Shown here: positions 19,401 to 45,187 of the stretch, piece by piece
Position numbering within the stretch: position 1 is the stretch's first letter
Layout: each line of letters opens with the position of its first letter
NCBI GenBank assembly: GCA_964430885.1
Contig: CAYSHM010000017.1
Coordinates: 1 to 45,187 of the forward strand
Direction of reading: 5' to 3'
DNA: 45,187 nucleotides
Source: an uncultured archaeon
GTDB lineage: Archaea > Thermoplasmatota > Penumbrarchaeia > JASLWR01
Notes under the pieces: generated by a model
Databases searched by the model: none
What the model saw: the letters and a program-made list of their open reading frames with translations, nothing else
What the model was told of the DNA's origin: nothing
Program-made: the position numbers and the translations under genes

Positions 19401-19456
19401 CTATAGAACTGGCAGTTCAGGAATTGCTTAGATCCTCTGCCTCTGGGAATCCGTGA
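16436..19456 (+). CDS. Membrane-anchored protein with many thrombospondin type-3-like (DxDxDGxxDxxE) Ca-binding repeats
   Basis: More than 20 D-x-D-x-D-G-x-x-D-x-x-E...DP repeats; charged N-terminus then a TM; second hydrophobic helix near the C-terminus. ATG 16436 is preferred over TTG 16301 because the upstream part is AT-rich and AGGTTGA precedes 16436. Confidence 0.85.
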   Translation: MSEKDKKTAARSSASKRTVRKRVVKKKRTVDTDKKYIEENQRITAEKEKKSEDGVSDEELEVGGKEEEIDPNSAEDETTAEEMERWKRIEEMAGIKLSDVQVPEEEPTDTKEGMETQGSSKKKLSSSKGLVLPQIDIGHIHRERGQKGTGRKYNVYIVTIIVAIIVGLSIFSYIRYSVPPTSYDTDDDGMPDKWENLYGLDVRDSKDRNKDMDGDGLSNIDEYKEDTLPDNPDTDGDKIPDGWEALHNMNPKISSDWILDLDSDGVEYTVNNITLQINFTARDEYIAGTDPNDPDSDDDIMLDGWENYFKLDPRDGSDSGEDNDGDSLTNIEEYEMGTNPSSKDTDSDELDDLVEIVTWKTDPLNSDTDGDLIFDGWEVKNKMDPLDRKDANLDPDNDNLTSWREFLHGTDPNNPDSDGDGMPDGWEIDWGRNSTTGVLEVDPSKNDGNLDADNDLLPNVWEFNKGTDPLNPDSDNDGLSDGAECFVGHRGKLLGGIYFTEDPDWIYFTDPLDQDTDGDGLSDHFEINNGINASNEDTDNDELEDFEEINTIHTFPFREDSDSDGLNDREEVRGTYGYLTNPLLNDTDEDGLHDGVEVLNDHLPFRGSTGPFGVHSTNPTIKDTDGDSIFDGWETDNGATRKITLIERFNGDVGLDTWFEREYVNLKYNWNGTDWKEFLDKDGDGLVDQDLPAVNIINPLLSEDKLLDPDGDDLPNYMEFSSYSDKTGLPFSTDPLLVDTDSDGMPDGWELTYITYLDDLKVWMPDPLKWDAQEDPDRDGHNYEIDGLEYYHPFVNIEEYWWSNFYPDHCDPVDPDVDSNSVTDGSEIWQHSYDGNIAEGDGLPNGWECLFSGYNIYIYGPNDYIPENIMTALFNPFEGDSDNDGIMDGNADPDEDDHINLEEFLRKTDPTDPNSVPSRTRHGRDRHAVELSLSLSNPGDASLRGTVQKPSETASEPFTVSDPYSKTAGRNDHTPVYSLIMLVIFVIFTIELAVQELLRSSASGNP

Positions 19457-26500: not shown

Positions 26501-28530
26501 TGAATTTGGGGAAGGTCTTGGTCACTGACATGCTCTAGAGCTTCTTCAATGGCCTTTTCTTTCCCGGATTTTATTATCGGGTCTTTCTTTTCAGGTGGTT
26601 CCACCATAATTTCTTTTACCCTGCCTCTCTGCCGGCTCTTTCTGGCCAGATCGGAGAAAGTGACAATCCCCGAGCCACTTCGCTGGATTTCGCGGTCATC
26701 CGCTTTAATTTCTCCCTGCTCTTTTTTCCTATCCTCGGGATGTTCAGATCTGAATTCTGGAGGGAACGGATCTTCAAGAAGACTGTCATTTACATGTTCA
26801 TCACCAAGTATCTCCCCTCCATGCTCCTTGGAAGCGCTTTCATCTTCAACAAGGGCTTTCCTCATTTTGGGTTCCAAACCTGCATGGCCAACCACAAAAA
26901 CCGGTCTGGTATCCTCCTCCTTTTTCTCTTCAGGGGAATCAATATGGACAAACATCTTCTCCACATTGATAGATGGGGTCAGCACCGAGGAGCCGCCTGC
27001 CTTGAACTTAGGGGTAACGGATTCAGGTACAGGTGCATAAGAAACACTCTCCCTGGAATCCACGATGTTCTGGGGGGTTGCAGCTTTCCCTGAATGATAT
27101 GACTGCCGGGGTCTGAACTTGGCGAATAAGGTCCTCTGCTGGGTCTTCTGATCGGCAATAATGCCCATTCCCGTAGGTATGGACCTTATGAAATCAGTGT
27201 TCATCAGTACATTTGGCGCCTTTGCGGGTATTCTCTTTTTCAGGGCCTGTATATCATCCTTCAGAGCTAAATTATGACTGAGCATCATGTCCACCTGGGA
27301 AAGTACCTCGTCATCGGTGGATGCCGGTCTCTGGGTAGCAAGGACAAGAGCGCAGCCGGGCCTCCGGCCTAGTTTTGCATACTCGATAAGAGCGGATGTT
27401 GCAGGGGTGCTCTTCCTGTGAGGCAGAATCAGATGCGCCTCATCTATCAGAAGCCAGGTAACTGGAATGGACTCGCCTCGAGAGACGTTCAATCCCATGG
27501 AAATGGCCTCTTCTCTTTTGGAGGCCTGTATTCGCCCTTCAAGGATCTTACGAGCCAGAATTCCAACGATTAGGGCTCTCTTGTCATCGTCGAGCTTGGG
27601 ATGTGAAACGTCGATGACAGTTACCCTGTTGGCTTTGATAAGCTGGGTTATGGGGGTTCCATCAACCGAGAATATCCCCCAATTTCCAGCTGCCAAGAAT
27701 CTAGCCCCCATTGACCTTCTGGTGGAAACCGCGTAACCTTTCTTTTTGGATTGAAAATCAATATCATGCTCTATGCATTGAATTATATCGCCTATGGAGT
27801 AAGCATTGTCCTTACCAGGCATCTCAACCTTTCTCTCCCCGTATAGAGCAATATAACCTTCTCTTACCTTGTTGATGACATCACCAATTAAAAGACCCTG
27901 AGCCTTGAAACGGTTGACATCGAACATTGTACACCAGTCACCAGCGCTCATTTCATGTATCGCTATTGAAAAATTATCATCTATTACGGCTTCCATTCCG
28001 TCCTCGTATCCCATGGGAGTATATACATCGACATTATGAAAACCGCGGGCTTCCAATCCGAAGGACCTCAGCTGCTCTATCTCTTTATCTGACCTGTTCT
28101 TCCTTTTCATAGACCAGAATATCCCTATTGGATCAATGAGCACCGTTCCTATGCCCTGTTCTCCCTTGGCCAGTTCTTCGGCTATGGTTCCCAGTGTATA
28201 GGATTTTCCGCTTCCCCTTTTCCCGCAGATGAATATGATATGAGGGAACTGGTTATCGATCATTATCTGTCTTGCAAGATGATTGTCACCTGAAAGCTGT
28301 GTTTCCGCTACCACCCCAATATCCATTAGTCCCGTGTTCCCGATCTCCTGGTGTTCACTTCTTCTTCTTCCAAGGACTATGTAATCGTTCTCAGTATCTA
28401 TAAGTGGGTTCAGCGGGCTCTCTATCTCGGGCACATAATTGAAAAGATAACTTTCATCCTCTCTAACCTCTTCGTCAAGCCCATTTTCTATTTGGATGTC
28501 ATTGATATCGATATCCTTCATAACTTCCAC
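23563..28530 (-). CDS. HerA/DUF87-type P-loop ATPase fused to acidic linkers, a DUF835 domain and a winged-helix-containing C-terminus
   Basis: Walker A GKRGSGKS (28201-28224); IDPIG; Walker B LLIDEAH; GRRPG; ATQRP; DUF835 signature WLS...DP..L...I.EFL...INGLEY...GF...LLE.E; wHTH LNRALKNLEKEGLV. Start may be ATG 28521. Confidence 0.85.
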   Translation of the reverse strand: MEVMKDIDINDIQIENGLDEEVREDESYLFNYVPEIESPLNPLIDTENDYIVLGRRRSEHQEIGNTGLMDIGVVAETQLSGDNHLARQIMIDNQFPHIIFICGKRGSGKSYTLGTIAEELAKGEQGIGTVLIDPIGIFWSMKRKNRSDKEIEQLRSFGLEARGFHNVDVYTPMGYEDGMEAVIDDNFSIAIHEMSAGDWCTMFDVNRFKAQGLLIGDVINKVREGYIALYGERKVEMPGKDNAYSIGDIIQCIEHDIDFQSKKKGYAVSTRRSMGARFLAAGNWGIFSVDGTPITQLIKANRVTVIDVSHPKLDDDKRALIVGILARKILEGRIQASKREEAISMGLNVSRGESIPVTWLLIDEAHLILPHRKSTPATSALIEYAKLGRRPGCALVLATQRPASTDDEVLSQVDMMLSHNLALKDDIQALKKRIPAKAPNVLMNTDFIRSIPTGMGIIADQKTQQRTLFAKFRPRQSYHSGKAATPQNIVDSRESVSYAPVPESVTPKFKAGGSSVLTPSINVEKMFVHIDSPEEKKEEDTRPVFVVGHAGLEPKMRKALVEDESASKEHGGEILGDEHVNDSLLEDPFPPEFRSEHPEDRKKEQGEIKADDREIQRSGSGIVTFSDLARKSRQRGRVKEIMVEPPEKKDPIIKSGKEKAIEEALEHVSDQDLPQIQKDEEIEEEKVTTEEKAVESVRSYEDIDHLAPSKVFTVEDMMKDGEVDLKELDTPVEEKNEDKSDREEGPADDVDIDDESVQIPEEEEMEGKPEDSIEPGPEEKAEVDVLVEENTPYQEEQADEKETTEVPAEEKPTAPTAVPEKRELDIHSVITQMDLEERNIDDIEGSELLIKALEEGPHFLFKDERGKRAIEFLKDLMDDKQPEEDTEDSEEGEEEDSLQDRKKVLLISRIPRSKVLGEFSKKDVIYYWLSRTPIKNSLDPNDLWNMVGKIAEFLKENSPGFVYINGLEYIMTVKGFKAMIEVVQCIHEIALVLKGVVVFNVMSRVLDEKQLLLLEMEMDKVFDRELIEGTEYETYEIPEKTQTGISAEPGPESEVSLEDASAAEIVSEEEEEDFDDDVGKMDAEGEKAETKDDRSKKKAEAEADLNKAEDKGASSDDSVDWELDSDAAENDDEVDPEAGVHRIEEVLANDELSIKESLKEKVKEVPKWAEEEEGVVIEKDESGVVFKIKEDVLDEKKERFIEEWVEEDGNVDIEENENGITYVIKVDENDEHRDDAGMPAAGYRHFPGGQVRDPNQGMGWPDIRFNQDYLRRTLQGRNIREEDIQKVHLPAPGPSPREEMVARRRPGEPLKRMVKPRKVLDLRPEMESSQRITESEFADKVHREELAAEIARSTELSGTEIPVGRDEPGSITESEPPAREDIYEDYDQPEFDFLAPGSRHLVVEPQITDSRAESSAMSDLETKGLIKKKRIEMVTGSQITFLPLMRLTVSRTEGLIRRKKKNYTLFFDPVTGELVTRYKKGLKRTMNLWHLFGRSVSEIKTLYYLRRSAFLMDTELKLKTSLRAQDLNRALKNLEKEGLVNKEVSGDGGYRYARDIDLNVPSKFTRAVPDLPYIREGDIKTEALKPEYKTNDIKSIIDTLGDGLSLDSEDVVYYPYFIISIKGKRGPRQIFIDAVNGNKDDILSGLTKYQLEDIK

Positions 28531-30519: not shown

Positions 30520-30555
30520 CTCCCCAATCGGTTTTTTATTATGGAGGCTGAAAAA

Positions 30556-33057
30556 ATGATCACAAAAAAACGAATAATAATATCATCGATCTTGTGTATG
30601 GTATTGCTTCTGAGTGCATCAATGACAACTATGGGTTCGTCAGAGAGGGACGAGGATGCGAGAGGCGGTATCAATCATGTGAACATCATTGTGTTTGATC
30701 TAGAGGAGAACGATCTCCTTCCAGATACATTGCTGAAATTCTTTAGGGTAGAGCCCAATGGAAATGAAGAATTCTTGGGTGAGCATTTTACCGATGAGAA
30801 TGGAACATTCTCCGGGAGGCTGGAGAACGGCACTTATCTGGTGGAAGCTCATCACCGCGGTCATGAACCGGGGCATATCATGTTCGATACCCACGGAATG
30901 AACCAATCATTGAACTTTGAAATTGGCCTTATGCCCATTCACCACCCTGAACCAGTTATGGTCAAGATCATTCCATTGTCCGTTGAGGGTGAGATAATTC
31001 ACGAGGCAGTGGCATCGTTGATCAACATTGAGACAGGCGATGGTTTCAGGGAACACATGGAGAATGAAAGATGTATTGAGTTGGAAGTTCCAGAAGGAGA
31101 ATATGTGATGGAGGTCTTTGCTGAGGGGTACGAGGGATTTGACGATATCATTGAACTTTGGGATATTCCTGACTTCACCATCACTGTGGAACTTATTCCT
31201 GAAGAGGAGGAAAATGAAGAGGCTCTGGTAACTATTGAATTCCTTCTTGAGAATTCGGATGAACTGGTTCATCACGGCAGAGTTGAGATGATCAATACGG
31301 AGACCGGAGAAGTCTATTGGGGTGAGATCGTTGACGGGTTCACAATTCTCGTACTTCCGTGGGGCCATTACAAACTGATTGCAGAAATACCAGATCATAA
31401 ACCTGTGGAAGATGGATATGAGATCTTTGAATGTGTAGACTTCTTTATTACCATAGTCTTCGGACATATGGAGGAGGAATTTGGTTTCATAGAAGGCAAA
31501 ATATTTGATATTGAGTCAGGAAAACCCCTGCCTGAAACTTATATCTTCATTGAATCCCAGGAATACTGGATGGAGGATGATGTTCCCTGTGACGATGGTG
31601 AATTCTACAATAATGAAAATTGCGGGAAGTGGTTCTTCTTCGAGACCTGGACCGGGGAGAATGGTGAATTCTATTTCGATGAGATACCCATGGGTGAGTA
31701 CATTATTTACATCGAACATCCCGGTTTCCATGAGATCAGGGAGGAGTTCAAGGTCTTTGAAGAAATGTTATTCCTGGAATTCGGTTTGAGACCATTCGAA
31801 GATGTGAAACCTGAAGAATTTATCCTAATAACTGGAAACGTGTTTGACGGGTTCAGCGGAGAGGGAATTCCCCATGCATTAATATCTTTCCATCCATATC
31901 AAGAAGAACCCCATCATCCAGAATACAGACCTCACATATTATTCGAGTATTATGACGGCGACAGTGACGGTAATCCCGAGATCATGCTCTTGAAGGCTGA
32001 TTTCGATGGTGATGGAAAGGTAGACCTTCATTATGTCTACATTGACGAGAACAGCGATGGTAACCCTGAATGGATCAAGGTTGAGGCTTCATGGATGTTC
32101 CCGGGTTTCCACATGGAACTTCCCGGACTCATGGAATATTTAGAGCTCATGGGATACGGATGGGACCACTATGAGGATGAGGAATGGGAGGAATGGGACG
32201 AAGAAGAAGAATGGTGGGATGAGGACGAGGATTGGGAAGACGAAGATGAATGGGAAGATGAGGACAGGACAAGAGGAGGAAAAGAATGCAAAGGGGAGCA
32301 CAAAGAGAAGGAATATAAGGAGGAGGGAAAGGAACACTGCCCACCCGACCCTGAGTGTGAGTTTTTAAAGGTAAAGACTGACGATACTGGCTTCTTTGAG
32401 ATCAAGGTTCCCATGGGTGTTTATACTGTCACGGTTGAAGCTGAAGGCTATCATCCGTTCAAGGAGGTCTATATGATTTTCCCGGAAATGGAGGATAAAG
32501 AGGAATACGACAATGAGGAAATTCCCTCCATGGAACTCATCTTTGAACTCCGCCCCTACGGTGAAGATGAAGAAGCCATGAATATTGTAATGGATGAGAA
32601 CGAGAACTATGATAAAAAAGATATCATAGGGACCGAGAAGGAAGAAATCGGCAGTCTTGACATGGATTCCCTTGTGGATAGGTTCTTGGAGAACGATGAC
32701 TATGATGTGGATATCGAACCCTTCAAGGAAGTATTATCCGATGCAAAGGATAATACGGCTGGAGAGAAGAAGAACTCCTCAACAAACACTGAAGGAGCTG
32801 AAAGCACGGTCAGCTATACTTCAGGAACCACTGGAAGCATTATAAATCTCGGTGCGGCCTTGGGTATTCTGCTAATTCTCTTGGCTCTTCTCCTGGTATT
32901 GAAGAAAAGAAACAGCAATAAGAAAGAGAGGAATCCTCAAAAGGATGATAAAATGGAAATACCACCTAGAAGACCTGAATACGATTTCAAACCATTAGCT
33001 CCCAGCCCAAAGGTCAGGACCGTGAGGGTAACAAGGAGAAGACAGCTGAAAAGGTAA
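30556..33057 (+). CDS. Acidic cell-surface protein with carboxypeptidase-regulatory-like (CnaB/transthyretin-like) beta-sandwich repeats and a C-terminal TM anchor
   Basis: Signal peptide; repeated TDxNG.F....P.G.Y.+.+.AEGY/HPGF units; DxDxDG loops; TM followed by KKR. ORF track start is 30541. Confidence 0.8.
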   Translation: MITKKRIIISSILCMVLLLSASMTTMGSSERDEDARGGINHVNIIVFDLEENDLLPDTLLKFFRVEPNGNEEFLGEHFTDENGTFSGRLENGTYLVEAHHRGHEPGHIMFDTHGMNQSLNFEIGLMPIHHPEPVMVKIIPLSVEGEIIHEAVASLINIETGDGFREHMENERCIELEVPEGEYVMEVFAEGYEGFDDIIELWDIPDFTITVELIPEEEENEEALVTIEFLLENSDELVHHGRVEMINTETGEVYWGEIVDGFTILVLPWGHYKLIAEIPDHKPVEDGYEIFECVDFFITIVFGHMEEEFGFIEGKIFDIESGKPLPETYIFIESQEYWMEDDVPCDDGEFYNNENCGKWFFFETWTGENGEFYFDEIPMGEYIIYIEHPGFHEIREEFKVFEEMLFLEFGLRPFEDVKPEEFILITGNVFDGFSGEGIPHALISFHPYQEEPHHPEYRPHILFEYYDGDSDGNPEIMLLKADFDGDGKVDLHYVYIDENSDGNPEWIKVEASWMFPGFHMELPGLMEYLELMGYGWDHYEDEEWEEWDEEEEWWDEDEDWEDEDEWEDEDRTRGGKECKGEHKEKEYKEEGKEHCPPDPECEFLKVKTDDTGFFEIKVPMGVYTVTVEAEGYHPFKEVYMIFPEMEDKEEYDNEEIPSMELIFELRPYGEDEEAMNIVMDENENYDKKDIIGTEKEEIGSLDMDSLVDRFLENDDYDVDIEPFKEVLSDAKDNTAGEKKNSSTNTEGAESTVSYTSGTTGSIINLGAALGILLILLALLLVLKKRNSNKKERNPQKDDKMEIPPRRPEYDFKPLAPSPKVRTVRVTRRRQLKR

Positions 33058-34145: not shown

Positions 34146-37100
34146 ATGACCTCAAATAATGAATTGGACCCAAGAGGCTGGAGGATAATGTTAGATCGGG
34201 GAGGCACCTTTACTGATATAGTGGGTATCGATCCTGCAGGTTATGTAAGGATCAAAAAGATTCTTTCCGGAGAAGAAGAGGAAAAGGTCCGATTGACTGA
34301 GGCCATCAAGGAACTTATTTGTGGGAATAAGGAAGAAACCATTCCCAAGGGGACCATATATGAGATCAGGATGGGTACCACAATAGGTACCAATGCTCTT
34401 CTGGAGAGGAAAGGCGAGAAATGCGCCCTCATGATCACAAAAGGATTCGGAGACCTTCTTGAGATAGGTTATCAGGACAGACCAGAACTTTTCTCTTTAC
34501 AGATAATCAAACCTTCCATGCTCTACAAGAAAGTCGTTGAATTGATTGAGCGGATTGGTCCCGACGGCAGCACCATAACACCTCTTGACAAATTTGATGC
34601 TAGAATAAAATTGGAAAGACTCTACAATGAAGGCTATAGAACCCTTGCAGTAGCATGTATGCACTCATTCGCTTTTCCTGAAAATGAAAAAAAAGTTGGA
34701 GAGCTGGCAGAAGAGATCGGTTTTAATCACATATCTCTTTCCCACAAGGTCATACCTCTCATGAAGTTGGTAAGCCGGGGCGATACTACCGTTCTTGATG
34801 CTTATCTGACTCCTTTGCTTAATAATTATTTATTGAATATTCAGAGCGCCATTTCAAGGGATCTAACAGGTGGACCCTGTCAAGAGAACAATTATGAACC
34901 AAGGACCCCTAAGGATACTAATAGCGCCTATATGGACCCAAATAGCGGTCCGGACCTGCTTTTTATGCAGTCAAACGGAGGCCTCATCTCGGGAAATGAG
35001 TTCCGAGGTAAGAATTGCATTCTATCTGGACCTGCCGGAGGGGTCATTGGTGCAGTTGAGATATCTAGGGAAATAGGGGAGAACAGAATAATCACATTCG
35101 ATATGGGGGGCACCTCTACCGATGTTTCTCACTTTAGAGGAGAGCTTGAAAGAAGCTATGAGCGGAAAATATCTGGAGTCAGAATTAGAGCTCCCATGCT
35201 GAACATCAAGACCATAGCATCTGGCGGGGGATCAGTACTGCATTATAGGGACAGTAGATTCATTGTAGGGCCGGATTCAGCTGGATCGGACCCGGGTCCA
35301 AAATGCTACCGAAAAGGCGGACCACTGACCTTGACAGATGCAAATCTGTTTCTGGGAAGAATTCAGCCGGATCATTTCCCTAAGATTTTCGGTATGAACG
35401 GCGATGAAGCTGTGGATATTGAAGCTGTGGAAACACAATTCCACCTTCTGACAGACCGGATAAACATTGAACATGAGATAAAGAAGGATCCATATGAGGT
35501 TGCCCAGGGGTTTCTAGATGTGGCAGTGGAGAACATGGCGCAGGCTATCAAATCAATAACACTCAGAAAAGGATATGATGTAAAGGAATATCTACTATGC
35601 TGTTTTGGAGGGGCCGGAGGACAGCATGTCTGCAGAGTGGCCGATTCCATGGGGGTTAAAAGAATTTTAGTACATCCTTTGGCTAGTGTTCTATCTGCTT
35701 ACGGTATGGGCCTGTCAGCAAGAAGGTCTATAAGGGAATGCAGTATTGAAACGAACCTGAACGCTAAAACATTGAAAATTATTTATGAAAGTTTTATTGA
35801 GCTGGAAAATGAGGTAAAGAAAGAATTGGGGATCTCCTCCCGGAAATTAGGGGGTGATACAGCCCATAGCATCAGTATCAAGCGTAGGGTTAAATTAAAA
35901 TTCACAGGTACGGATACAAGTATTGAAGTGGATCTGAAAGATGTAGATGGAATGAAAGCTGATTTCCTGAAGATGCATAGGATACAGTTCGGATTCATCT
36001 ATACGGACAGGGAGCTTTCTGTAGACAGTATATCTGTGGAAGCTGTTGAAAGAGAGGAAATGCTCAATGTCGCTTCAGTTAGAAAAAACCCCGCTCCAGC
36101 CATAGCAATTGACCAAGTTGAGGTATATTTTGATGGGAAATGGATGAAATGTCCGGCATATCAGAGAAGCAGAATTTCTCCGGGTGAAGTAATCAACGGG
36201 CCGGCTCTGGTTATTGAGGATAATACTACCACTGTTATCTATAGGGGCTGGCAGGGGAGGGGCCTGGAAAACGGCTGTTTGATTATGGAGACGGCAGCAG
36301 CTGAATCTGCCGCTCTTAAAGATATCTCTGAAGCCGACCCGATCCAACTCCAGATATTCAGCAATATTTTTGCATCAATAGCCGAGAGAATGGGTTATGT
36401 TCTGATGAACACTTCCACATCGGTCAATATCAGAGAAAGGAGGGATTTCTCCTGCGCCATCTTCGATCCCCTAGGGAATCTCGTAGCAAATGCACCGCAT
36501 ATACCGGTTCATTTAGGGTCAATGTCCCATGCAGTCAAATCCCTGAAAAGGAAATTCACCTTCAGACCAGGAGATGTATATATGGTGAACTCTCCCTATG
36601 ACGGAGGTACACATCTTCCGGATATTACTGTTGTTGATCCGGTATTCGATAAGTATAATGATGAAATACTCTTCTTTGTTGCCTCTAGGGGACATCATTC
36701 GGATATAGGTGGTATCAGTCCCGGCTCAATGCCCGCCTTAAGTAAGCACATAGATGAAGAAGGATTCATTACTTCCGGATTTTTACTGCAGGACCGCGAT
36801 GGCCTCAGGGAAAAGGAATTATTGGAACTGTTCTCAAGGAGCAAATATCCCCCGAGAGACCCACTAAGTAACATCGCAGATCTGAAAGCCCAAATGGCTG
36901 CCAATATCAAAGGGATCCAAGAGATTAATTTGCTGATATCCCAATACGGTAAGGAAATGATTCACGCCTATATGAATTTCATCAGGGAAAATGCTAAACA
37001 GTCTGTAATATCATCCCTGGAGGGATTCGAGGATAGAGGATTCACTCTAAGAATGGATAATGGTGGTAAAATAAAATTTACCATTAATCTGAAAAAGGAC

Positions 37101-37895
37101 AATAATGCATCTAATAAAAAAGCTGAGAACTCATTTCTTTGTATTGATTTGGATGGGAGTTCGAATATAAGCGGGGATAATTTCAATGCACCTATTCCAG
37201 TTCTCGAGGCTTCTGTATTATACACAATCAGAACCATAATAAACCGGGATATTCCTCTTAATCAGGGTTGTTTGGAACCTATTCGAATCCAAATACCGTC
37301 AAACAGCTTTCTGAATCCTGCCTATCCAAGTGCTGTCGCTGCAGGAAATGTTGAAACCTCCCAGGCTTTGGTAAACGCACTCATGGGTGCCCTGGATATT
37401 CAAGCTGGTTCACAGGGAACTATGAATAACATTGCTTTCGGTAATGATAACATCCAGTACTATGAAACAATCTGCGGGGGAACTGGAGCCGGAAAAGGCT
37501 ATGACGGCTGTTCTGCTATCCATTCTCATATGACCAATACAAGGATCACTGATCCCGAGGTAATAGAGCATAATTATCCCGTTATATTGGAGGAGTTCTC
37601 AATAAGAAGAGGAAGCGGCGGAAGAGGGGCATTTGAAGGGGGCAATGGGGTGGTGAGGAAGATCCGTTTCCTAGAAAACGTTATCCTATCGGTGATCACA
37701 TCCAACAGGAAGGAATCCCCTTTTGGTATTAAGGGCGGTCAAAATGGTAAACCTGGTGAAAACATCCTTATACGAAAAAATGAAAAAAAAATGATCATGG
37801 GAAGCTCTTTCCAGGAAGAATTGGAAGCTGGAGACAAAATAGTGATCAAAACACCAGGTGGCGGCGGATACGGAAGGCAAACCAAAAATTTTTGA
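34146..37895 (+). CDS. ATP-dependent 5-oxoprolinase / hydantoinase, fused A+B
   Basis: DRGGTFTD, GTTIGTNALLERKG, SGPAGG, DMGGTSTD, GPDSAGSDPGP, SVNIRERRDFSCA, HIPVHLGSM, GGTHLPD, GNVETSQ, YYETICGG and TPGGGGYG motifs. Confidence 0.95.
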   Translation: MTSNNELDPRGWRIMLDRGGTFTDIVGIDPAGYVRIKKILSGEEEEKVRLTEAIKELICGNKEETIPKGTIYEIRMGTTIGTNALLERKGEKCALMITKGFGDLLEIGYQDRPELFSLQIIKPSMLYKKVVELIERIGPDGSTITPLDKFDARIKLERLYNEGYRTLAVACMHSFAFPENEKKVGELAEEIGFNHISLSHKVIPLMKLVSRGDTTVLDAYLTPLLNNYLLNIQSAISRDLTGGPCQENNYEPRTPKDTNSAYMDPNSGPDLLFMQSNGGLISGNEFRGKNCILSGPAGGVIGAVEISREIGENRIITFDMGGTSTDVSHFRGELERSYERKISGVRIRAPMLNIKTIASGGGSVLHYRDSRFIVGPDSAGSDPGPKCYRKGGPLTLTDANLFLGRIQPDHFPKIFGMNGDEAVDIEAVETQFHLLTDRINIEHEIKKDPYEVAQGFLDVAVENMAQAIKSITLRKGYDVKEYLLCCFGGAGGQHVCRVADSMGVKRILVHPLASVLSAYGMGLSARRSIRECSIETNLNAKTLKIIYESFIELENEVKKELGISSRKLGGDTAHSISIKRRVKLKFTGTDTSIEVDLKDVDGMKADFLKMHRIQFGFIYTDRELSVDSISVEAVEREEMLNVASVRKNPAPAIAIDQVEVYFDGKWMKCPAYQRSRISPGEVINGPALVIEDNTTTVIYRGWQGRGLENGCLIMETAAAESAALKDISEADPIQLQIFSNIFASIAERMGYVLMNTSTSVNIRERRDFSCAIFDPLGNLVANAPHIPVHLGSMSHAVKSLKRKFTFRPGDVYMVNSPYDGGTHLPDITVVDPVFDKYNDEILFFVASRGHHSDIGGISPGSMPALSKHIDEEGFITSGFLLQDRDGLREKELLELFSRSKYPPRDPLSNIADLKAQMAANIKGIQEINLLISQYGKEMIHAYMNFIRENAKQSVISSLEGFEDRGFTLRMDNGGKIKFTINLKKDNNASNKKAENSFLCIDLDGSSNISGDNFNAPIPVLEASVLYTIRTIINRDIPLNQGCLEPIRIQIPSNSFLNPAYPSAVAAGNVETSQALVNALMGALDIQAGSQGTMNNIAFGNDNIQYYETICGGTGAGKGYDGCSAIHSHMTNTRITDPEVIEHNYPVILEEFSIRRGSGGRGAFEGGNGVVRKIRFLENVILSVITSNRKESPFGIKGGQNGKPGENILIRKNEKKMIMGSSFQEELEAGDKIVIKTPGGGGYGRQTKNF

Positions 37896-37951: not shown

Positions 37952-38731
37952 ATGGTCCTTAGAACCGTTTTCAACCCATTAACCTTCGGATTAGATAAAT
38001 GCAAGAAAAGATTTCCACGTTTCACAAGGTATTTCCAATTCATTCTATACCGATATTATAATTTTGGTAGGTTCTGCAGCACCATAGTGATAAGAAAAAC
38101 TGTAAAAAAATATGTGAGGTCGATCTCGTATATCGATTTCAAGAACAAATATGGTTATTCTCCCATCCTGAATAACCTACTCAGGGATCATAGAGAATAT
38201 GAGAGATGCGGGGTTCCAGTTCCTAACCTTATCAGATTTTCCGGAAGAAAGAAACACCCGGTGTTCTACTTCGAGAGAGCAAGTGACCTTGATCATCCCA
38301 CCCTGAGAGAAAAAATACCCGAAATATTAGATATTGCTTTTAAGATGTTATCAAACGGATATCATTTCGACATATCGCCTACTAATTTTGGGCTTTGCTC
38401 CCGAAAACTGGTTTTCAGAGATACCTTCGGTCTAAAGAAAATGAAAAAAACAAAGGTAGAAACAGAGAGCATGGTCCGAAAAATAATAGACTATGAGAAA
38501 ATGGTGTTCAAGAAGAAGCGCAGGGATAACCTAGAATTCGAAAGCGAGCTTAGGGTTCTGATCCTGAATAGGTTCAATGAAGAAATGACGGGAGAAGTTT
38601 CAGAAACCGGAAATGGGAAATCCAAGCCTAATGAGATAAATATCACCCATGACGAGGGAAAGCAAAGGGCAATAATCCTTAATAAAAAAGCGTTTAAGAG
38701 CCATGTTTCCTTAAAAACACAAAAAATATGA
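37952..38731 (+). CDS. Hypothetical basic protein with a protein-kinase-like fold (RIO/Kdo/Bud32-like)
   Basis: FGRFCS (P-loop-like), VKK, GVPVP, FERA (hinge), HFDISPTNF (HxDxxxxN catalytic loop) and FRDTFG (DFG-like). Confidence 0.55.
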   Translation: MVLRTVFNPLTFGLDKCKKRFPRFTRYFQFILYRYYNFGRFCSTIVIRKTVKKYVRSISYIDFKNKYGYSPILNNLLRDHREYERCGVPVPNLIRFSGRKKHPVFYFERASDLDHPTLREKIPEILDIAFKMLSNGYHFDISPTNFGLCSRKLVFRDTFGLKKMKKTKVETESMVRKIIDYEKMVFKKKRRDNLEFESELRVLILNRFNEEMTGEVSETGNGKSKPNEINITHDEGKQRAIILNKKAFKSHVSLKTQKI

Positions 38732-38991
38732 ATCGCTTACCATTTATATTTGACCTTTTTTATTGGGGTATAACGGTTTTTTTCGGTCAATATGGCCGGG
38801 AACAATTTTGATATAGTATTTGAGATGAAAAAGTAATAAATATAATAAGGTATTTTTAAGTCGGGAATATATACCCAACTAACATCTGATAAAATAATGC
38901 TGATATATGTTAATTTTATAGGCAGAATAGAATATCGAACGCAACTTCTTTCTGCTGTTTTTTTGCAGTCAAACCAAGAGATGTGAATCCA

Positions 38992-41900
38992 ATGGTACCG
39001 GAAGATAATACACAAAGTGAATCTCAGACAGAGAATTCATATACGCCAGACAAGGTCCAAGCAATAATCACCAAAGTGGAGACCTTGGTAGATCAGAGCA
39101 ACCAAGAGACTTTGAAGGAAAAGGCCCTAAAATACCTTGTTAAATCCAAAGAAGAACTTGGTAAGGACCTGAAACGTTCCCTTTTATTAGCACTTAAAGC
39201 TAAACAGATTCTTCAGGAGGGGAAACCGACCGAGGAAGAAAGCACATCAGAGGAGAAGAAAGAAACTGAAACCCCATTAAAGAAAGCCGAAACGAGTGAA
39301 CAGGTGGAGAAAAAGGAAGAAAAAATCCCGGAAGGAATAACAAAACCGGCGGCTTTGGAGCGAGAAGCAGTACCGGGACTGTCTCCTGAACTGAACGATT
39401 TATTCTACAATGTAAAGGATAGGTTGGAAGTGTGCAAAGGCTTGGGTGCAGACGTTTCTGAACCAGAGGAGCTACTTGACCTTGCCCATAAGGAAATAAG
39501 ATTGGAACAATTCATATTCCTTAAAGAACATCTCAAAAACGCAATTGAGCTTCTGGATACCATTCAGATAGAGTTCTGTGATAAGAAAATTGCTGAGATC
39601 AAGAGTATCCAAGATGATATAGATCCCATTATTCAGAAGATAGAGGAGAGGGAAGGGGATGTGGTAAGTCTTAAAGAAAGGCGCAATGAAATGGTATCTC
39701 TGACCAATGACAGGAAATTCGATAAGGCAAATGAAATGGGCTCTGTATTATTGGCAGATGCGGCTAGATTATTGGAAAGAACCCTTATCCTCACCAATAA
39801 ACAGGAGATCGTCAATCTGAAGAAGGAATTCGATGAATTCCAAGAAATGACCTCAAAGAAGAACCCTGATCTATTGGACCTGCTGAGAGGGGCGGTTTTA
39901 GCCCTGAAGAACAAGGAGCATCAGAAGGTCAATGAGATTGTCGGCGAGTTCAAGATAGGATTCGAAAAATCCCAACAAAGACATCGGAAAAGCCTGCTTA
40001 TTGAACAGCTCGACGGATTGGAGCAGGAGCTGACCTTGGCATTTGAACTAGGGCTCGATGAGACAGAGATAGAAAGCAACCTTCAGCTTATCAAGAATAA
40101 GATGGAAGAGAATGAGCTTGGCCCCATACCAGATCTGATAAAAGGAATAAATGAGAAGATAGAGAAGATCAAAAAGGAAGGAGCAAAGGAGTTCACGGAA
40201 ATGGTCCTTAAAGAGGTCATTGAGCTGGAAAATGAACTGAATGAGAACGAGATATCCATCGATCCTGAAGAGAGGGGAGCTATCGACGGGAGATTGTCCA
40301 AGGCTAAGGAGGCTATGGAAAACAAGTTTTTCCTGGAAGCATACCGATCATCCAGCAAGGCAAAAGAGATATTGGAGGAAAAATGGAGGAATTACAGAGG
40401 TGAAACCGTTGCTCTTGAGATCGAGAAGATAAAGGAATTTCTGGAAAGAAGCCAGGATTATGATTTTGTCGCTCAGAAAGATATTGACGAAATTAGAACA
40501 AATCATCAGAAGGTCATGGAAACCTATGATGAAGGGGACATAGAGAAGGCTTACGACCAGCTCATGGGTATAGAAGGCCTTGTCAAGCTTCAGAGAAATC
40601 TCATCACTGATTTTAATAAATCGGAATCCATGCTGGTGAAGACTCGAGAGCTGATAGAGACTTGTAAACAGGTGGATATTGACACATCTCAGGAAGAAGA
40701 GTTTCTAGAACAGGCCGGAACGTTGTTTGAATCAAGAAGCGATATAAGCAAGACCCTTCAGATACTTCGGAATACCTATAAACTGCTTGAAAGTAAAATG
40801 GAGGACATTAACCGGAGGAAAGCCGATGAAACATTCCAGAAGGCAAAAGGAATGATAGAAAATTATAAGGATCTTCTCGATAACACCGAAGGGTTTACCA
40901 ATGCACTCAACGAGGCAAAGGTTGCCTTTGATGAAAAGGATTATCCCAAAGTACTTGATCTGGCTGGCAACGTGATATCAGATATTGAGCTCATTATCAA
41001 GAGCGGAAGAAAGGAAGCAATAGAGAAAATGCTTTCAATATGTGAAGAACTTATCGAGAAGAACGAGAAATTGAACATCGATATGATGATGACAGAGGCT
41101 CTGATATTCAGAGCTAGAAAGGCGATCAGAACTTCAAATCTGATGATGGCTGACGAATATGCCAATAAAGCCAGAGAAAACGCAAAGAGCGCTCGAAATG
41201 ACTATTTCAAGAATCGGTTGGCAAATAACTTCAAACAATCTGTAGAACAGATAGCTTTCGGCAGGGAACTAGGTTTGGAACTGGACGCAGTATCTAGTGA
41301 GATTGACGAACTGAGTAAAAAGCAGGGGAGCACACCTCCTGAGGATCTGTATCAGGAATTAATAAAGGTCACTGATGAACTGAATACCAAGACCCAATCC
41401 ATTCTCATGGAGATGCTGAACAAAGAGGAGGAGGGGATAAAGGAGCTGCTTGCGGAATCTAGAGAAGAAGGACTGCAGATTGAGGGAGATGGGGGTCTTT
41501 CAGTGATCGAAGTCATGAAGGAGAAGGAGGAACTGCGGGAAGCTTTAGACCTTGCTAAAATATCCAGGGAGTCTCTAACCCGAAAATTCAATTCATTCAT
41601 GAAGATCAAATATAGTTCTCTGATAGGAGATTACAAGGTTGAGATAACAGCGGTTGAAACTGAGATAGGCAGTGAACAGCCAGAGCTTCAGGTTCATTTG
41701 ATGGAGATAAACGATGCTTATGAGGACGGGAATTTTAAAAAGCTTAAGGCGGCTGTGAATGAATATAAGAACACAAAGACGAATCTCCGAAATCAATTCA
41801 ATGCTGAAAAATATTCAAAGGAACTGAAGCTGATAGATGAGGAGAGCGCACCCCTCAAGGACCTGAACCTGGACATATCCCAGCTTCTGTCCTTGACGGC

Positions 41901-44900
41901 ATTGGCTTTTGAGAAGGTCAACTCTCTTGAACTGGATGATATGAAAGGTCTTCTAAATGAAATAAAGGACCAGATGGAAATTATCAGATCGGTCAAATCA
42001 AAGAGCCTTGCCGGGACCATGATAGCTAGAACCAAAGTGCTCATGGATGAAGCCAGTAAAATGAATCTCAGCTTGGACAGGGCATCCGCCCTAATAAAAG
42101 ATGCTGCTGAATCCATCAAGAAAGGGAACTATATCAAGGGATGCATTATCTCCAGTACGGTCCACAAAGAGATAGAGGAAAGAAAGAAGGATGCATATCT
42201 CCAGAATTCACTTACTTCTCTCAGGGAATGTCAAAAACTTCTAGGTGTGGCCACAGATCTCAGTCTTGACGTTACTGATATACTTGGAAGTTTGGCCGAT
42301 GCAAAGGACCTCTTCGACAAGGAAGAATATCAGCCTGCTTATGAGACTGCCCAGATTGTTGTCACCTCCCTTCAGGGAAGGATCAATGAGAAGATGGAAA
42401 CATTAGTCACCGGCAACAAGGATAAATTGGAGGAACTTATTGCAAAATTGGAAACAATGGATATGGATATGAAAGGGTTCACACAAGAGCTTATGGAGAT
42501 CTCCCAGTTATGTTCGGATGGCGATTTCAACAGATGCAGGGAGCTCATTACAGGATTTGAGACGAAATTAATGGAAAGCTTTGGGGAGTATTATATCCAA
42601 ATGAGAAAGACAGATAGGAACAACCTTGTCACTCTCAGAGAAAAAGGAGGTAAGGACACCGCCTTCCTAGAAGAGCTTCAGGAAGATATCAACAAAGCTT
42701 TCAAGATCCAGGATATTACGAAAATGAGTGAACTCTATATGCGGTTCAAGGAAGAATATCAAAAATTAGAACTTTCCTATCTTGCTGTTGCCTACAAAGA
42801 AACAATCGCCGATCTGGAGAAGGAAATTGACGGACTTGAGAAAATGGGATTGGATGTCAAGGATATCAAAGATAACTTCAATTCTGCAGCTGAACTTCTG
42901 GAAGAGGAGGATTTTGGCGGATTCAAGACTGTTATGGATGAATTGAAAAAGGGCCTAGACACCCTGAAATCCCAGGGTTCGGCAGATACCTTAAAGATCT
43001 TAGATGTGGAGATACAGCAGCTGTTGACCCAATTGACCAAGGCAGAGGTGGAATTGACAGAAGAAATACAGATGGTAAAACGGTATCAGTCACTGCAGTC
43101 CATCGGAAAACATTTCGAGGCGCTCCAGCTAGCTAATGGAACCAAAGAGGAACTCAGGAAAGCGGAAAGGGAATATTATATCGAGATGAGCACAATCTCC
43201 ATGAATGAAGCAAAGAAACTTCTCAATGAAGCTGATGAACTGGAATTGGATGTGGAGTTCATTACCGAGATGGTAAGCAAGAGCAAGCAGTATTTCGAAC
43301 AGGAGAAATTCCAGGAAGCAAATCAGTTTGCCAATAGAGGAAACCGGTTCCTAAAAGAGATTATCGAGAGCAAGCGGTTTAAGATGATCAATTCGGAAAG
43401 AAGAAAGATCAATGGGCTCATCAAAAGATCCGAGGACGAAGGTGTTGATATTTCCAAGGAAATGGAGATCGCTGACCAGTTCGACAACATGCTCAAGGAA
43501 GAACGCTACCGTGACCTTGTTATCATCATGGGAAAAACAAAGGAGAGTATACTCAACAAGATAAATTCAATATCCGAACAATTCATCCCTCTTATTAATA
43601 ACACTGCTGATAGTTTCCTTGAGCTTAAATCATTGACCGCTGAAGAATATCCTGCACTCCAAAACGATATTGAAGCCGCAGGAACTATGCTGGATGCACT
43701 CAAGTACGAACATTTCAAGAATAAATTGGAAAAAATCAACGGCCAGATAAAGGAAAGAAAGGAGTCCTTCCTAACCGAAAAATACAGCCAGATGCTGGAC
43801 TTGGCCGAGAAGCGGCTGGAGGAGATTTCGGTCCTCGGACTGAATGTAGCCGGCAAGATCGATGTTATCGGAACAGCTAGAAAAGCCATTGCAGAAGGTA
43901 AATATGATCAGGCGGGCAAGATCTGCAGCCAGTTGGAGGAGATGATAAGGGATACAATAAACGAGGATGTCAAGAGGTATTCCCTGGATATAACAAAGGA
44001 AGTAAAGGACATCATATCAGAACTGAAGGAAACCGACATTGACATTTCCAAGGAAATGGAAAGCTATAAGGCTGCTATATTGGTACTCAAGGAAAGGAAA
44101 TTCGTGGAAGCTGGAAATCAGATACGGGCGATAAAGGGGGCCCTGGAAGGCTTTATCAAGGAGCAGAAGGTAGCCAAGGTTTCCCAGACCGTTAATTCCA
44201 TTCAGACCCTAATGTTGAAGGGTATTGAGATGGGACTGGATGTCACCTTTGCTGTGGAATGTCTCGGGGACAGCAGATCGTTGATAGACCAGGAGAAGCT
44301 TGATGAGGCCATTGAACTCACATCAAATGCAAAGAAAAGGATAGTTGAACTGCTTGACAATAAACTGGACGGATTGATTGGCAAGGAAATCAAGAACATC
44401 GAGGATTTGAGTGCAGTTGCCAAGGAGAATAATATACAAGTGGATGCCGAGCTTGATGAATATTTGGATTGTGTTGGTAAAAGGGAGAGAGGCGAACTGG
44501 ATGATCCTCTGCCCCTTTTCAAAGAGCTATATGCAAAGTTCAAACTGAGGATATCCGACTATTTCAGGAACCGCATCAATACCGCCAAGGATGAACTGAA
44601 AGGAATTGAACATGAAGCAGGTGAGGAATTGACTCTAATGGAGGGATATATTACTCAAGCTGAGAACAATCTATTAATGTCCAATTACAATGACATCGAA
44701 ACAGCACTTGATCATTTCCGAATCGAATTACAGAAAAAAATGGAATCCTCAAAGGTGTCTGGCCATCTCAAGGAGCTAAATGATGTTCAGGCGGATATTG
44801 CAAAATATTACGACCTTGGTTTGGATATGACTGAGACAATGGAATTGATGCTCACCGCAAAGAAGCATCTTGATAACGAAGATCTTTCTTCCTACAAGAC

Positions 44901-45187
44901 CCTGGAACCTGTTATCGCGGAGAAAGTCGCAGAGATGAAGGGGGCCAAGATCAAGGATTACATCAAGGAACTGGTAAATAAATCCAAGGAACTGATGAAC
45001 TCTTTGAAGGAATTGAAAGTGAACCTTTCAGTTGAACAAAAAAAGTTCAAGGAAATTGTTCTCATTATCAAGGAGAAGGATTTCCTCAAGGGTGCTAAAG
45101 GGTTATTAGACCTAACTAGCAATCTGGAGGTGATATCCGAACAATTCATCCCTCTTATTAATAACACTGCTGATAGTTTCCTTGAGC
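38992..45187 (+). CDS. Giant alpha-helical repeat protein (>2060 aa, 3' end outside the window)
   Basis: ATG at 38992 (MVPEDNTQSESQ...). Every frame-1 segment I translated is open, and the track has no stop-terminated ORF in this frame, consistent with an ORF running off the window. E/K/L-rich with a 66-aa period. Confidence 0.92.
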   Translation, partial: MVPEDNTQSESQTENSYTPDKVQAIITKVETLVDQSNQETLKEKALKYLVKSKEELGKDLKRSLLLALKAKQILQEGKPTEEESTSEEKKETETPLKKAETSEQVEKKEEKIPEGITKPAALEREAVPGLSPELNDLFYNVKDRLEVCKGLGADVSEPEELLDLAHKEIRLEQFIFLKEHLKNAIELLDTIQIEFCDKKIAEIKSIQDDIDPIIQKIEEREGDVVSLKERRNEMVSLTNDRKFDKANEMGSVLLADAARLLERTLILTNKQEIVNLKKEFDEFQEMTSKKNPDLLDLLRGAVLALKNKEHQKVNEIVGEFKIGFEKSQQRHRKSLLIEQLDGLEQELTLAFELGLDETEIESNLQLIKNKMEENELGPIPDLIKGINEKIEKIKKEGAKEFTEMVLKEVIELENELNENEISIDPEERGAIDGRLSKAKEAMENKFFLEAYRSSSKAKEILEEKWRNYRGETVALEIEKIKEFLERSQDYDFVAQKDIDEIRTNHQKVMETYDEGDIEKAYDQLMGIEGLVKLQRNLITDFNKSESMLVKTRELIETCKQVDIDTSQEEEFLEQAGTLFESRSDISKTLQILRNTYKLLESKMEDINRRKADETFQKAKGMIENYKDLLDNTEGFTNALNEAKVAFDEKDYPKVLDLAGNVISDIELIIKSGRKEAIEKMLSICEELIEKNEKLNIDMMMTEALIFRARKAIRTSNLMMADEYANKARENAKSARNDYFKNRLANNFKQSVEQIAFGRELGLELDAVSSEIDELSKKQGSTPPEDLYQELIKVTDELNTKTQSILMEMLNKEEEGIKELLAESREEGLQIEGDGGLSVIEVMKEKEELREALDLAKISRESLTRKFNSFMKIKYSSLIGDYKVEITAVETEIGSEQPELQVHLMEINDAYEDGNFKKLKAAVNEYKNTKTNLRNQFNAEKYSKELKLIDEESAPLKDLNLDISQLLSLTALAFEKVNSLELDDMKGLLNEIKDQMEIIRSVKSKSLAGTMIARTKVLMDEASKMNLSLDRASALIKDAAESIKKGNYIKGCIISSTVHKEIEERKKDAYLQNSLTSLRECQKLLGVATDLSLDVTDILGSLADAKDLFDKEEYQPAYETAQIVVTSLQGRINEKMETLVTGNKDKLEELIAKLETMDMDMKGFTQELMEISQLCSDGDFNRCRELITGFETKLMESFGEYYIQMRKTDRNNLVTLREKGGKDTAFLEELQEDINKAFKIQDITKMSELYMRFKEEYQKLELSYLAVAYKETIADLEKEIDGLEKMGLDVKDIKDNFNSAAELLEEEDFGGFKTVMDELKKGLDTLKSQGSADTLKILDVEIQQLLTQLTKAEVELTEEIQMVKRYQSLQSIGKHFEALQLANGTKEELRKAEREYYIEMSTISMNEAKKLLNEADELELDVEFITEMVSKSKQYFEQEKFQEANQFANRGNRFLKEIIESKRFKMINSERRKINGLIKRSEDEGVDISKEMEIADQFDNMLKEERYRDLVIIMGKTKESILNKINSISEQFIPLINNTADSFLELKSLTAEEYPALQNDIEAAGTMLDALKYEHFKNKLEKINGQIKERKESFLTEKYSQMLDLAEKRLEEISVLGLNVAGKIDVIGTARKAIAEGKYDQAGKICSQLEEMIRDTINEDVKRYSLDITKEVKDIISELKETDIDISKEMESYKAAILVLKERKFVEAGNQIRAIKGALEGFIKEQKVAKVSQTVNSIQTLMLKGIEMGLDVTFAVECLGDSRSLIDQEKLDEAIELTSNAKKRIVELLDNKLDGLIGKEIKNIEDLSAVAKENNIQVDAELDEYLDCVGKRERGELDDPLPLFKELYAKFKLRISDYFRNRINTAKDELKGIEHEAGEELTLMEGYITQAENNLLMSNYNDIETALDHFRIELQKKMESSKVSGHLKELNDVQADIAKYYDLGLDMTETMELMLTAKKHLDNEDLSSYKTLEPVIAEKVAEMKGAKIKDYIKELVNKSKELMNSLKELKVNLSVEQKKFKEIVLIIKEKDFLKGAKGLLDLTSNLEVISEQFIPLINNTADSFLE
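39445..45120 (+). repeat. About 29 degenerate 198-bp (66-aa) coding repeats
   Basis: The G/N/D-h-D-h turn recurs at 41074, 41272, 41470, 41668, 41866, 42064, 42262, 42460, 42649, 42847, 43045, 43243, 43441, 43639, 43837, 44035, 44233, 44431, 44620, 44818 and 45016, and less regularly from 39445. Confidence 0.8.
43570..43624 (+). repeat. 55-bp exact direct repeat, copy 1
   Basis: ATATCCGAACAATTCATCCCTCTTATTAATAACACTGCTGATAGTTTCCTTGAGC is identical to 45133-45187. Confidence 0.95.
45133..45187 (+). repeat. 55-bp exact direct repeat, copy 2 (end of window)
   Basis: Identical to 43570-43624; the 1563-nt offset is in frame. Confidence 0.95.

Follow-up and report, generated by a model that had tools for sequence, protein, structure and literature searches.

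A giant gene of tandem 66-residue helical repeats with predicted spectrin-like topology in a marine Thermoplasmatota archaeon

The stretch of DNA analysed here (the window) comprises the 45,187 nucleotides (nt) of positions 1 to 45,187 of contig CAYSHM010000017.1, genome assembly GCA_964430885.1, from an uncultured marine archaeon of the Thermoplasmatota, and lies at the start of a scaffold of 64,130 bases. Its 3′ end is occupied by the window part of a giant repeat-protein gene (38992..45187, plus strand), a stop-free frame that runs on past the window end. According to the list of open reading frames (ORFs) and the translation, the open frame covers 38983..45186 (+) and contains 2068 codons without a stop, its 3′ end being open; the start options are an in-frame GTG at 38983 and the first ATG at 38992. 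A preliminary description of this DNA, made from the sequence letters, had placed the start at 38992, which was confirmed as the first ATG, and had reported an ORF of more than 2060 codons with a stop outside the window. The length of this frame was borne out (2068 codons from the GTG), and no in-frame stop was detected in the translated window part. However, the stop does not merely lie beyond the window, since a scaffold gap of 100 N (contig positions 45188-45287) intervenes directly past the window end.

Analysis of the sequences on both sides of the gap revealed a collapsed tandem repeat. The last 55 nt of the window (45133..45187, +) are 100% identical to positions 43570-43624 and form the start of a second tandem copy, at which the assembly breaks. 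After the gap, contig positions 45288-45342 are identical to 45094-45148; the sequence then exits the repeat with the frame unchanged, and a further 838 codons precede the stop, which lies at contig position 47804. The repeated block, of which one copy was assembled (43570..45132, +), is 1563 nt long and encodes 521 amino acids (aa), or approximately eight units; as its size equals 3 × 521 nt, the repeat is in frame. The Logan contig corresponding to 43570-45148 (1,579 nt) had a depth of 38.6 against 13 in its flanks in the DNA run X1 and of 52.8 against 16.9 in the DNA run X2, which gives block-to-flank ratios of 2.97 and 3.12. In addition, a 44-nt loop-back contig (45119-45162; depth 32.2 and 39.8) joins the block end to the block start, and the downstream contig begins at 45313, the second exit of the repeat block. 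The threefold depth, the loop-back contig and the identities of the ends therefore indicate that the genome carries about three tandem copies of the 1563-nt block, of which the assembly retained one. The explanation of the last 39 nt of the window as an assembly chimera was rejected, because the depth and the junction contig show a genuine start of a second copy.

Bridging of the gap by overlap merging yielded a protein of 2,875 aa. With two extra copies of the block, a copy number taken from the depth ratios, the protein reaches ~3,917 aa and ~59 units. The true protein thus has about 3,900 aa and about 59 units, not ~2,060 aa, and ~1,000 residues were lost to the collapse; the size implied by the window was an underestimate by almost half. 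The recovery of the 3′ end, suggested in the preliminary description, was achieved through the scaffold continuation and the contigs of the two DNA runs. Annotation of the giant gene in the public assembly would be split or truncated at the gap.

The protein encoded by this gene (below, the giant) contains an array of 66-residue helical units (39352..45187, +; it continues past the window), recognized from hidden Markov model (HMM) hits, their spacings, column frequencies and autocorrelation. An iterated unit HMM detected 42 units in the gap-bridged protein, with starts mostly 65-66 aa apart, and 30 of the 42 begin inside the window part, including one weaker unit that lies upstream of 39352. 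Autocorrelation of the translated window part (BLOSUM62 matrix, compared with 30 shuffles) gave peaks at 66, 132, 198, 264 and 330 aa with z values of 8.1, 8.3, 6.5, 6.0 and 7.4, respectively, and an extra peak at 327 aa (z 9.9). The approximately 29 units and the 66-aa period described earlier are consistent with these 30 window units and with a z value of 8-9 at 66 aa and its multiples.

The column counts over the 42 units define a unit motif with G at position 40 (18 units), D at position 42 (22 units; D, E or N in 34), A at position 53 (20 units) and Y, F or L at position 62 (34 units), while position 65 is occupied by A in 16 of the 18 units having a residue there. Hence, the G/N-h-D-h turn and the A...h....Y/F..A pattern noticed previously constitute the unit consensus. 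The units are highly diverged, as had been stated: their mean pairwise identity is 14.7% and the maximum is 31.2%. Near the N-terminus, an alignment of four orthologues revealed a stretch dense in invariant columns (39160..39549, +; residues 57-186 from the ATG), which holds the first full unit as well as an acidic linker of low complexity. Residues invariant in all four orthologues include G57, L60, K61, K167, E168, I169, R170, L171, F174 and E186; in another orthologue alignment, the best-conserved stretches were E[GE]L[FLY][ED]LA[QH]K and EIRL[KE][EQ]F[KI][YF].

A Kyte-Doolittle scan of the giant with 19-residue windows found no hydrophobic segment that could serve as a signal peptide or a transmembrane segment: the maximum mean was 1.22, and no window exceeded 1.6. 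This agrees with the earlier statement that the visible part has neither. Charged residues make up 35% of the protein, and its net charge is -153. Searches of the giant against Pfam, NCBIfam and PDB sequences gave nothing above noise. A word-indexed protein search with the giant as a query scored 7,999 candidates, none of them at E 1e-3, a null result that reflects the method applied to a low-identity repeat, as relatives were found by six-frame and profile searches.

The gene downstream of the giant overlaps its stop by 14 nt and encodes a 1502-aa paralogue, whose ATG lies 8 nt past an AGGAGG sequence within the last codons of the giant. Judging from this sequence arrangement, the giant and the 1502-aa paralogue are translationally coupled. 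A zinc ribbon (PF13240) is located at residues 1480-1502 of the paralogue, that is, at its very C-end. In two relatives, the same locus is occupied by three genes encoding proteins of ~1,480, 644 and 1,706-1,709 residues; their junctions have the form stop-ATC-ATG with GGAGG just upstream. The 1502-aa protein is a full-length orthologue of the third gene product of the relatives (34% identity over 1,511 aa), and the N-terminal part of the giant matches their gene 1, and its C-terminal part the end of their gene 2. A related-locus search with the single giant protein found no loci, and the same search with the orthologue alignment found two. Of the gene neighbours, whose survey the preliminary description had suggested, those outside the operon were not conserved.

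Relatives of the giant were looked for at increasing distances. Its orthologues, with 24-28% identity, were found in all three genomes of the same family, where the longest open frames encode 7,295, 7,294 and 7,028 residues. A whole-protein six-frame search detected relatives in 28 of 41 related genomes. A profile built from 150 units matched 68 of 301 genomes of the phylum; these include the 36 sampled members of the same class without exception and 31 of the 264 remaining genomes; the survey of archaeal genomes with a repeat HMM, another earlier suggestion, thus placed the family in every sampled genome of the class. In a library of 1.84 billion representatives, 1,279 hits were obtained at E ≤ 1e-3 and 169 at E ≤ 1e-30, counts that are upper bounds, since repeats inflate the E-values: even an unrelated repeat protein, an insect allergen, reached 2.9e-56. 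The longest library match has 7,686 residues and 101 matched stretches.

A spacing of 66 aa is the mode in nearly all family proteins examined, including members of 1,750-7,300 aa. In a 5,910-aa fragment it accounts for 53 of 72 spacings, and the best 150 library hits contain 672 spacings of 66, the runner-up being 62 with 323. Selection on geometry, which the preliminary description had deduced from conserved length and diverged sequence, gains support from this dominance of a single spacing despite a unit identity of ~15%. Tandem units with a modal spacing of 66 aa characterize the giant, the paralogues and the class-wide relatives alike, and the absence of signal and transmembrane segments, the acidic composition and a zinc ribbon ending either the protein or the last protein of the operon were found as well. 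A subfamily of the library, with members of ~1,450-1,510 residues, has a 62-residue period, and one scanned member of it carries CARDB and a prokaryotic RING finger near the C-end.

In the source genome, at least nine ORFs contain four or more units; together they encode 18,022 aa, which corresponds to 1.7% of the bases. One of them is a 2,314-aa ORF on contig C5, which belongs to the same repeat family, with 6-12 units detected by unit HMMs. Upstream of this paralogue and in the same orientation (region C5:98352-108296, minus strand) lies a 964-aa ORF with ~13 hydrophobic segments; thus, the paralogue adjoins a hydrophobic protein gene, whereas the giant lies in an operon with a zinc-ribbon paralogue. 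At another locus of the source genome (L015; C18:10469-29073, minus strand), two adjacent members of 2,744 and 3,278 aa occur, and a zinc ribbon terminates the upstream member, which places the ribbon between two rods rather than at the operon end. Zinc ribbons were also found on two paralogues in the source genome, and roughly 30 of the best 150 library hits have a CxxC...CxxC pattern close to either terminus. Among 20 family members scanned, five carry CARDB and three have true TPR arrays fused at one end, and in one an N-terminal hydrophobic segment is followed by LamG, PEGA and beta-propeller domains.

The structure of six units (residues 1382-1776 from the GTG; 43126..44310, +) was modelled using AlphaFold2 with an alignment of 74 in-register six-unit windows from family proteins; the predicted local distance difference test (pLDDT) value was 93.9 and the predicted template modelling score 0.72. 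The model contains twelve helices, at residues 2-38, 44-58, 62-104, 110-124, 128-171, 176-190, 194-235, 242-256, 260-301, 308-322, 326-368 and 374-388. A second AlphaFold2 model, of the last 200 residues of the giant with five orthologous rows, had a pLDDT of 89.5 and displayed the same alternation. In both models, each unit consists of one long helix (31-51 aa, mostly ~43) and one short helix (12-16 aa), and in the second model the chain stops just after a short helix. According to the VIA-align program, three-helix bundles of 60-70 residues fit stretches such as model residues 213-280 and 281-348 with a root-mean-square deviation (rmsd) of 1.5-2 Å. In each of these stretches, a short helix is flanked by the closing half of the preceding long helix and the opening half of the following one. 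With these bundle boundaries, each long helix would be common to two bundles, which is the spectrin arrangement. The predicted fold is therefore a series of three-helix bundles joined by continuous helices, with a spectrin-like topology.

Comparison of the models with the PDB using Foldseek revealed no match at E ≤ 0.001 for either model, the E-values being above 2, and the best VIA-align Z-scores (EzrA, 10.8; PRC1, 10.3) were within the stated background of the tool for helical models. The check by AlphaFold fragments and Foldseek, proposed in advance, thus gave confident helical bundles and no significant PDB match. As for the spectrin-like chain of helical bundles anticipated in the preliminary description, the two AlphaFold2 models fit its topology, but by sequence the giant is not a member of the spectrin family. 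Estimated from helix lengths, not coordinates, the rise would be ~3.2 nm per unit and the length ~190 nm for 59 units.

The boundary between the giant and its partner has features of its own. The motif G[LIVM]x[LIVM]P[ST][DE] occurs once, at the C-end, in each of the three scanned proteins with a partner encoded downstream (the giant and the products of genes 1 and 2 of the relative G001), and it is absent from both scanned last proteins ending in a zinc ribbon. In this tail module, the motif is followed by a short helix. An HMM of the tail scored 103-116 bits at the C-ends of two orthologues in the genome G003 and of an upstream ORF in the genome G002. A head module follows an acidic leader at the start of the downstream protein and has 23 invariant positions (five sequences); ten of them, including I37, L41, A42, M50, A54, I58 and T61, line up as a stripe along the opening half of its first long helix. 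In a 2,197-aa protein of the genome G002 (locus L031, G002:C130), acidic, proline-rich and probably disordered linkers at residues 27-151 and 602-715 each precede a head copy; the G001 orthologue of this protein has one such leader of ~200 residues.

In fused paralogues of 5,000-7,700 aa, tail-like and head-like unit types are adjacent internally. A set of nine long paralogues, each a single chain, contains 33 tail-like units; for 26 of these a head-like unit lies exactly 70-72 aa further on, and for the remaining seven there is none within 330 aa. By the bundle rule given above, the last bundle of the upstream protein would be without its third helix, and the first half-helix of the downstream protein would be without its two partners. 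The incomplete tail and head halves, along with their adjacency in the paralogues, therefore led us to propose non-covalent tail-to-head docking. A complex prediction with the last 200 residues of the giant and the first 220 residues of the partner scored 0.01 against a mark of 0.32, for which the verdict of the tool is 'no answer'.

Taken as a whole, these data are best explained if the giant is a cytoplasmic and very acidic rod of ~3,900 residues made of ~59 tandem 66-residue units. In each unit, a G-h-D-h loop would connect the long helix to the short one, and a G-x-Y/F turn would follow the short helix. A bundle would arise where the short helix packs against the C-terminal half of the long helix before it and the N-terminal half of the one after it, and neighbouring bundles would share a continuous helix as in spectrin, giving ~3 nm per unit and ~190 nm in the extended form. 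The last bundle of the giant would be one helix short, and the partner would begin, after its acidic leader, with a conserved long helix; docking tail-to-head, the giant and the 1502-aa partner may form one polar rod of ~260 nm, with the conserved N-terminal module at one end and the zinc ribbon at the other. Such a rod could act as a fixed-length structural element, that is, a spacer, a tether or a part of a membrane or cell skeleton, and its length would evolve by block duplication. The cytoplasmic location, suggested previously, fits the lack of hydrophobic segments, the net charge of -153 and the zinc ribbons on the partner and paralogues. We consider this reading as a whole probable, if only just.

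Linked three-helix bundles build rods in eukaryotic spectrins, in bacterial EzrA and in some bacterial surface proteins. Spectrin repeats (spectrin, alpha-actinin, dystrophin, nesprins; PF00435) resemble the predicted fold of the giant in that tandem bundles share a continuous helix and that length is kept and sequence diverged. A spectrin repeat spans 106 aa per ~5 nm, and the estimated 66 aa per ~3.2 nm of the giant would give a similar number of residues per nm. Moreover, spectrin chains join by completing a partial repeat, which parallels the proposed tail/head docking, and beta2-spectrin and the alpha-actinin rod were among the weak Foldseek rows. In contrast to spectrin, the unit of the giant has 66 rather than ~106 aa, its predicted middle helix is short (12-16 residues), it occurs in an archaeon, and the ends lack actin-binding or EF-hand domains, a zinc ribbon being present only on the partner. 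PF00435 had no hit in the giant (E up to 1), its continuation, the partner, six paralogues or 20 library relatives, nor was it among the 25 commonest families listed for the 74 six-unit segments.

EzrA (4uy3, 4uxv) is a prokaryotic cytoplasmic protein of connected three-helix bundles, as predicted for the giant. Its chain 4uy3_A was the best VIA-align row, with the Z-score given above, 128 residues (about two bundles) aligned and an rmsd of 8.9 Å; for 4uxv, the rmsd was 26 Å over 339 residues, and only single bundles superpose. In the cluster listed by the Atlas, the EzrA family was found in 19% of the members (score 0.81). However, EzrA has a membrane anchor and few repeats, whereas the giant has dozens of units and no hydrophobic segment, and membership of this family (PF06160) was rejected, as the giant, its continuation and the partner showed neither a profile hit nor a membrane anchor. 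Ebh/EbhA and BibA (2dgj, 6poo) are likewise long or giant strings of three-helix bundles linked by long helices. These bacterial adhesins are secreted and attached to the cell wall, and their repeat lengths differ; the structural matches were not significant (2dgj, Foldseek E 4.6; 6poo, Z 7.6 with 233 residues aligned), and the Pfam scans indicated no sequence relation to the giant.

The preliminary description had also named full-length assignment to SMC or to a simple coiled coil as an outcome to be checked. The family scans and the two models argue against both. No SMC, AAA or ABC family was found in the giant, its continuation or the partner with Pfam and NCBIfam, and the predicted helix-loop-helix every 66 aa is not the unbroken coiled coil of SMC/Rad50. 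YfdX (PF10938) gave weak hits in 13 of the 74 segments, and two library relatives scored 39.2 and 33.5 bits against a cut-off of 26.6; there was no hit in the giant, phmmer of a YfdX-positive relative against the PDB found nothing, and hhalign of the unit profile with E. coli YfdX returned a probability of 1.3% over 20 columns, so this candidate was dismissed. By the tests applied, the giant does not belong to the spectrin, EzrA, TPR, YfdX or SMC families, although it would work like a spectrin-type rod.

Upstream of the giant lies an AT-rich intergenic region (38732..38991, +), which probably contains the promoter and the 5′ leader. An RNA contig of 177 nt from the metatranscriptome run X3 (contig positions 38876-39052, one differing letter) spans this region and the start codon. 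In total, seven RNA-library contigs of 163-204 nt with at least 99% identity were found along the giant in two metatranscriptome runs of the same study; they attest to presence in the libraries and carry no information on strand, level or transcript ends. These contigs cover 9 (X3) and 3 (X4) of 30 bins, and the uncovered bins are uninformative.

The next gene upstream (37952-38731, +) encodes a 259-aa protein that is basic (net charge +26), Phe-rich and without a Pfam or NCBIfam family. It has counterparts with 41-42% identity in all three same-family genomes and was not found in 37 others. Linkage of this gene to the operon was rejected, as in the same-family genomes it is located on other contigs. 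Directly upstream of it, a 1,249-aa ORF (34146-37895, +) has fused hydantoinase/oxoprolinase A and B domains. The window further contains a 1,655-aa ORF (23563-28530, minus strand) with a HerA/DUF87 ATPase region (101-329) and DUF835 (898-1018), an unusual giant fusion, and large ORFs at 9754-12039, 16301-19456 and 30541-33057 (+) with PKD/Big_7, bacterial TSP3 and CarboxypepD_reg/PEGA domains, probably cell-surface proteins. Genes for PolB, RNase HII and Cdc6 are also located in the chromosomal region of the giant.

A different gene order was observed at eight loci from other families of the class (L034-L041; genomes G035, G011, G009, G015, G025, G017, G007 and G008), where a gene for a 227-232-aa protein and an uncharacterised gene for 250-1,441 aa are followed by a giant relative of ~1,750-3,100 aa. 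The first gene encodes a KaiC-like ATPase (PF06745) in all five loci scanned, and in the one locus scanned for it a TPR protein lies on the far side of the ~1,750-aa relative. This order has no equivalent in the source genome. A link of the KaiC-like ATPase to the giant was dropped, as the two KaiC-like matches of the source genome lie elsewhere and that relative has no clear orthologue there.

Several other explanations of the array were considered. The best of them is that it mainly serves as a platform for protein interactions, a TPR-like adaptor offering numerous client sites, in which the 66-aa period is only a folding constraint and selection does not act on length or stiffness. The unit end, a short helix and the start of a long helix carrying A...L..G.Y..A, resembles the junction of TPR helices A and B. 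Among the 74 six-unit segments, weak ANAPC3 hits occur in 12 (best E 1.5e-7) and weak TPR_2 hits in 7, and the unit profile matches designer PPR and consensus TPR chains in the PDB. Three of the 20 scanned family members have fused true TPR arrays, and a TPR protein adjoins the ~1,750-aa relative in one scanned locus. Yet the TPR/PPR profile matches in the PDB are stretches of 17-22 residues, none significant alone, and TPR membership (PF00515, PF07719) was rejected, as there is no hit in the six-unit segment of the window itself and only 7-12 of the 74 family segments are hit weakly. The period is 66 rather than 34-35 aa, and the predicted long second helix, ~43 aa and three times longer than its TPR/PPR counterpart, does not fit a 34-aa solenoid. 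In addition, poor surface conservation (14.7%) together with strict unit length fits geometry better than client sites. We regard an interaction platform as unlikely.

A nucleoid or chromosome organiser, with a terminal zinc ribbon that binds DNA and an acidic rod that spaces or bridges loci, or DNA and membrane, appears improbable to us. Terminal zinc ribbons do recur in the family, on the partner and on the two paralogues of the source genome, and the replication genes mentioned above are in the same chromosomal region. However, Pfam and NCBIfam revealed neither ATPase heads nor a hinge nor a DNA-binding domain beyond the small ribbon, the net charge of -153 would repel DNA, and in relatives the replication genes do not recur beside the operon.

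Still less probable is a fast-evolving conflict or defence family, whose copy and repeat numbers would shift under pressure of viruses or mobile elements. The recent identical triplication of an 8-unit block, the at least nine ORFs with four or more units that take up 1.7% of the genome bases, the widely varying number and size of the genes in related genomes, and the fusion and split of genes within the operon would all suit such a family. On the other hand, no nuclease, NTPase, protease or other effector domain was found in the operon (Pfam and NCBIfam; PADLOC was not searched), the chromosomal surroundings are of housekeeping character, the ~1,750-aa member holds a conserved position in eight of the eight loci examined from other families of the class, and the repeat is present in all 24 genomes of the family f7, as expected of a core gene. 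Least credible of all is a surface fibre or adhesin exported by a route needing no signal peptide: the five CARDB carriers and the hydrophobic-segment/LamG/PEGA/beta-propeller member among the 20 scanned proteins, and the bacterial rods Ebh and BibA, which are surface proteins with only weak structural matches, speak for it, but neither the giant nor the partner has a signal peptide or a hydrophobic segment, zinc ribbons are modules of the cell interior, and no secretion genes lie beside the operon.

The reading of the giant as a cytoplasmic structural rod has in its favour the retention of unit length under sequence drift, the polar ends and the presence of the family in 36 of 36 sampled genomes of the class. 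Several points weigh against it. The relatives that carry CARDB or LamG/PEGA/beta-propeller domains suggest that some members of the family may be extracellular. The neighbours outside the operon differ between the source genome and the relatives and give no functional hint, and no characterised homologue bears on function. The alignment behind the six-unit model consists of paralogous repeat windows, partly staggered by MAFFT, and the rod dimensions derive from helix lengths rather than coordinates. The three-copy estimate comes from contig depth in two runs that are possibly the source of the assembly itself. As to docking, some of the nine paralogues behind the count of 26 in 33 are near-identical orthologues, and the matches to head-like and tail-like units inside these chains score low (11-50 bits), so that this count is not independent evidence. 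Finally, the duplicated head of one relative follows an acidic proline-rich linker of 100-140 aa and not a tail, which means that a head need not have a covalently adjacent tail.

A more far-reaching version of the structural-rod reading is offered tentatively, as rather unlikely though worth stating: the family may be an archaeal counterpart of the spectrin skeleton. It would consist of polar rods of 0.2-0.35 micrometre, built from one to three gene products by tail-to-head bundle completion and anchored by zinc ribbons, which would set distances or stiffen the envelope in marine Thermoplasmatota and whose length would be tuned, within short spans of evolution, by duplication of whole 5- or 8-unit blocks. 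A full-text literature search found no description of such a rod family in archaea, nor do passages of a preprint on giant genes (bioRxiv 10.1101/2023.11.21.568195) describe the repeat family.

By its sequence and models, the repeat described here appears to be a new 66-residue family with a spectrin-like topology in archaea that is absent from curated libraries; the present analysis adds the real size of the gene, the recent triplication of a block and a tail-head organisation that is either split or fused. The giant also illustrates how short-read assembly conceals the true size of repeat genes. If the rods are structural, they would represent a new class of archaeal cytoskeletal element and a natural example of a length-programmable protein rod.

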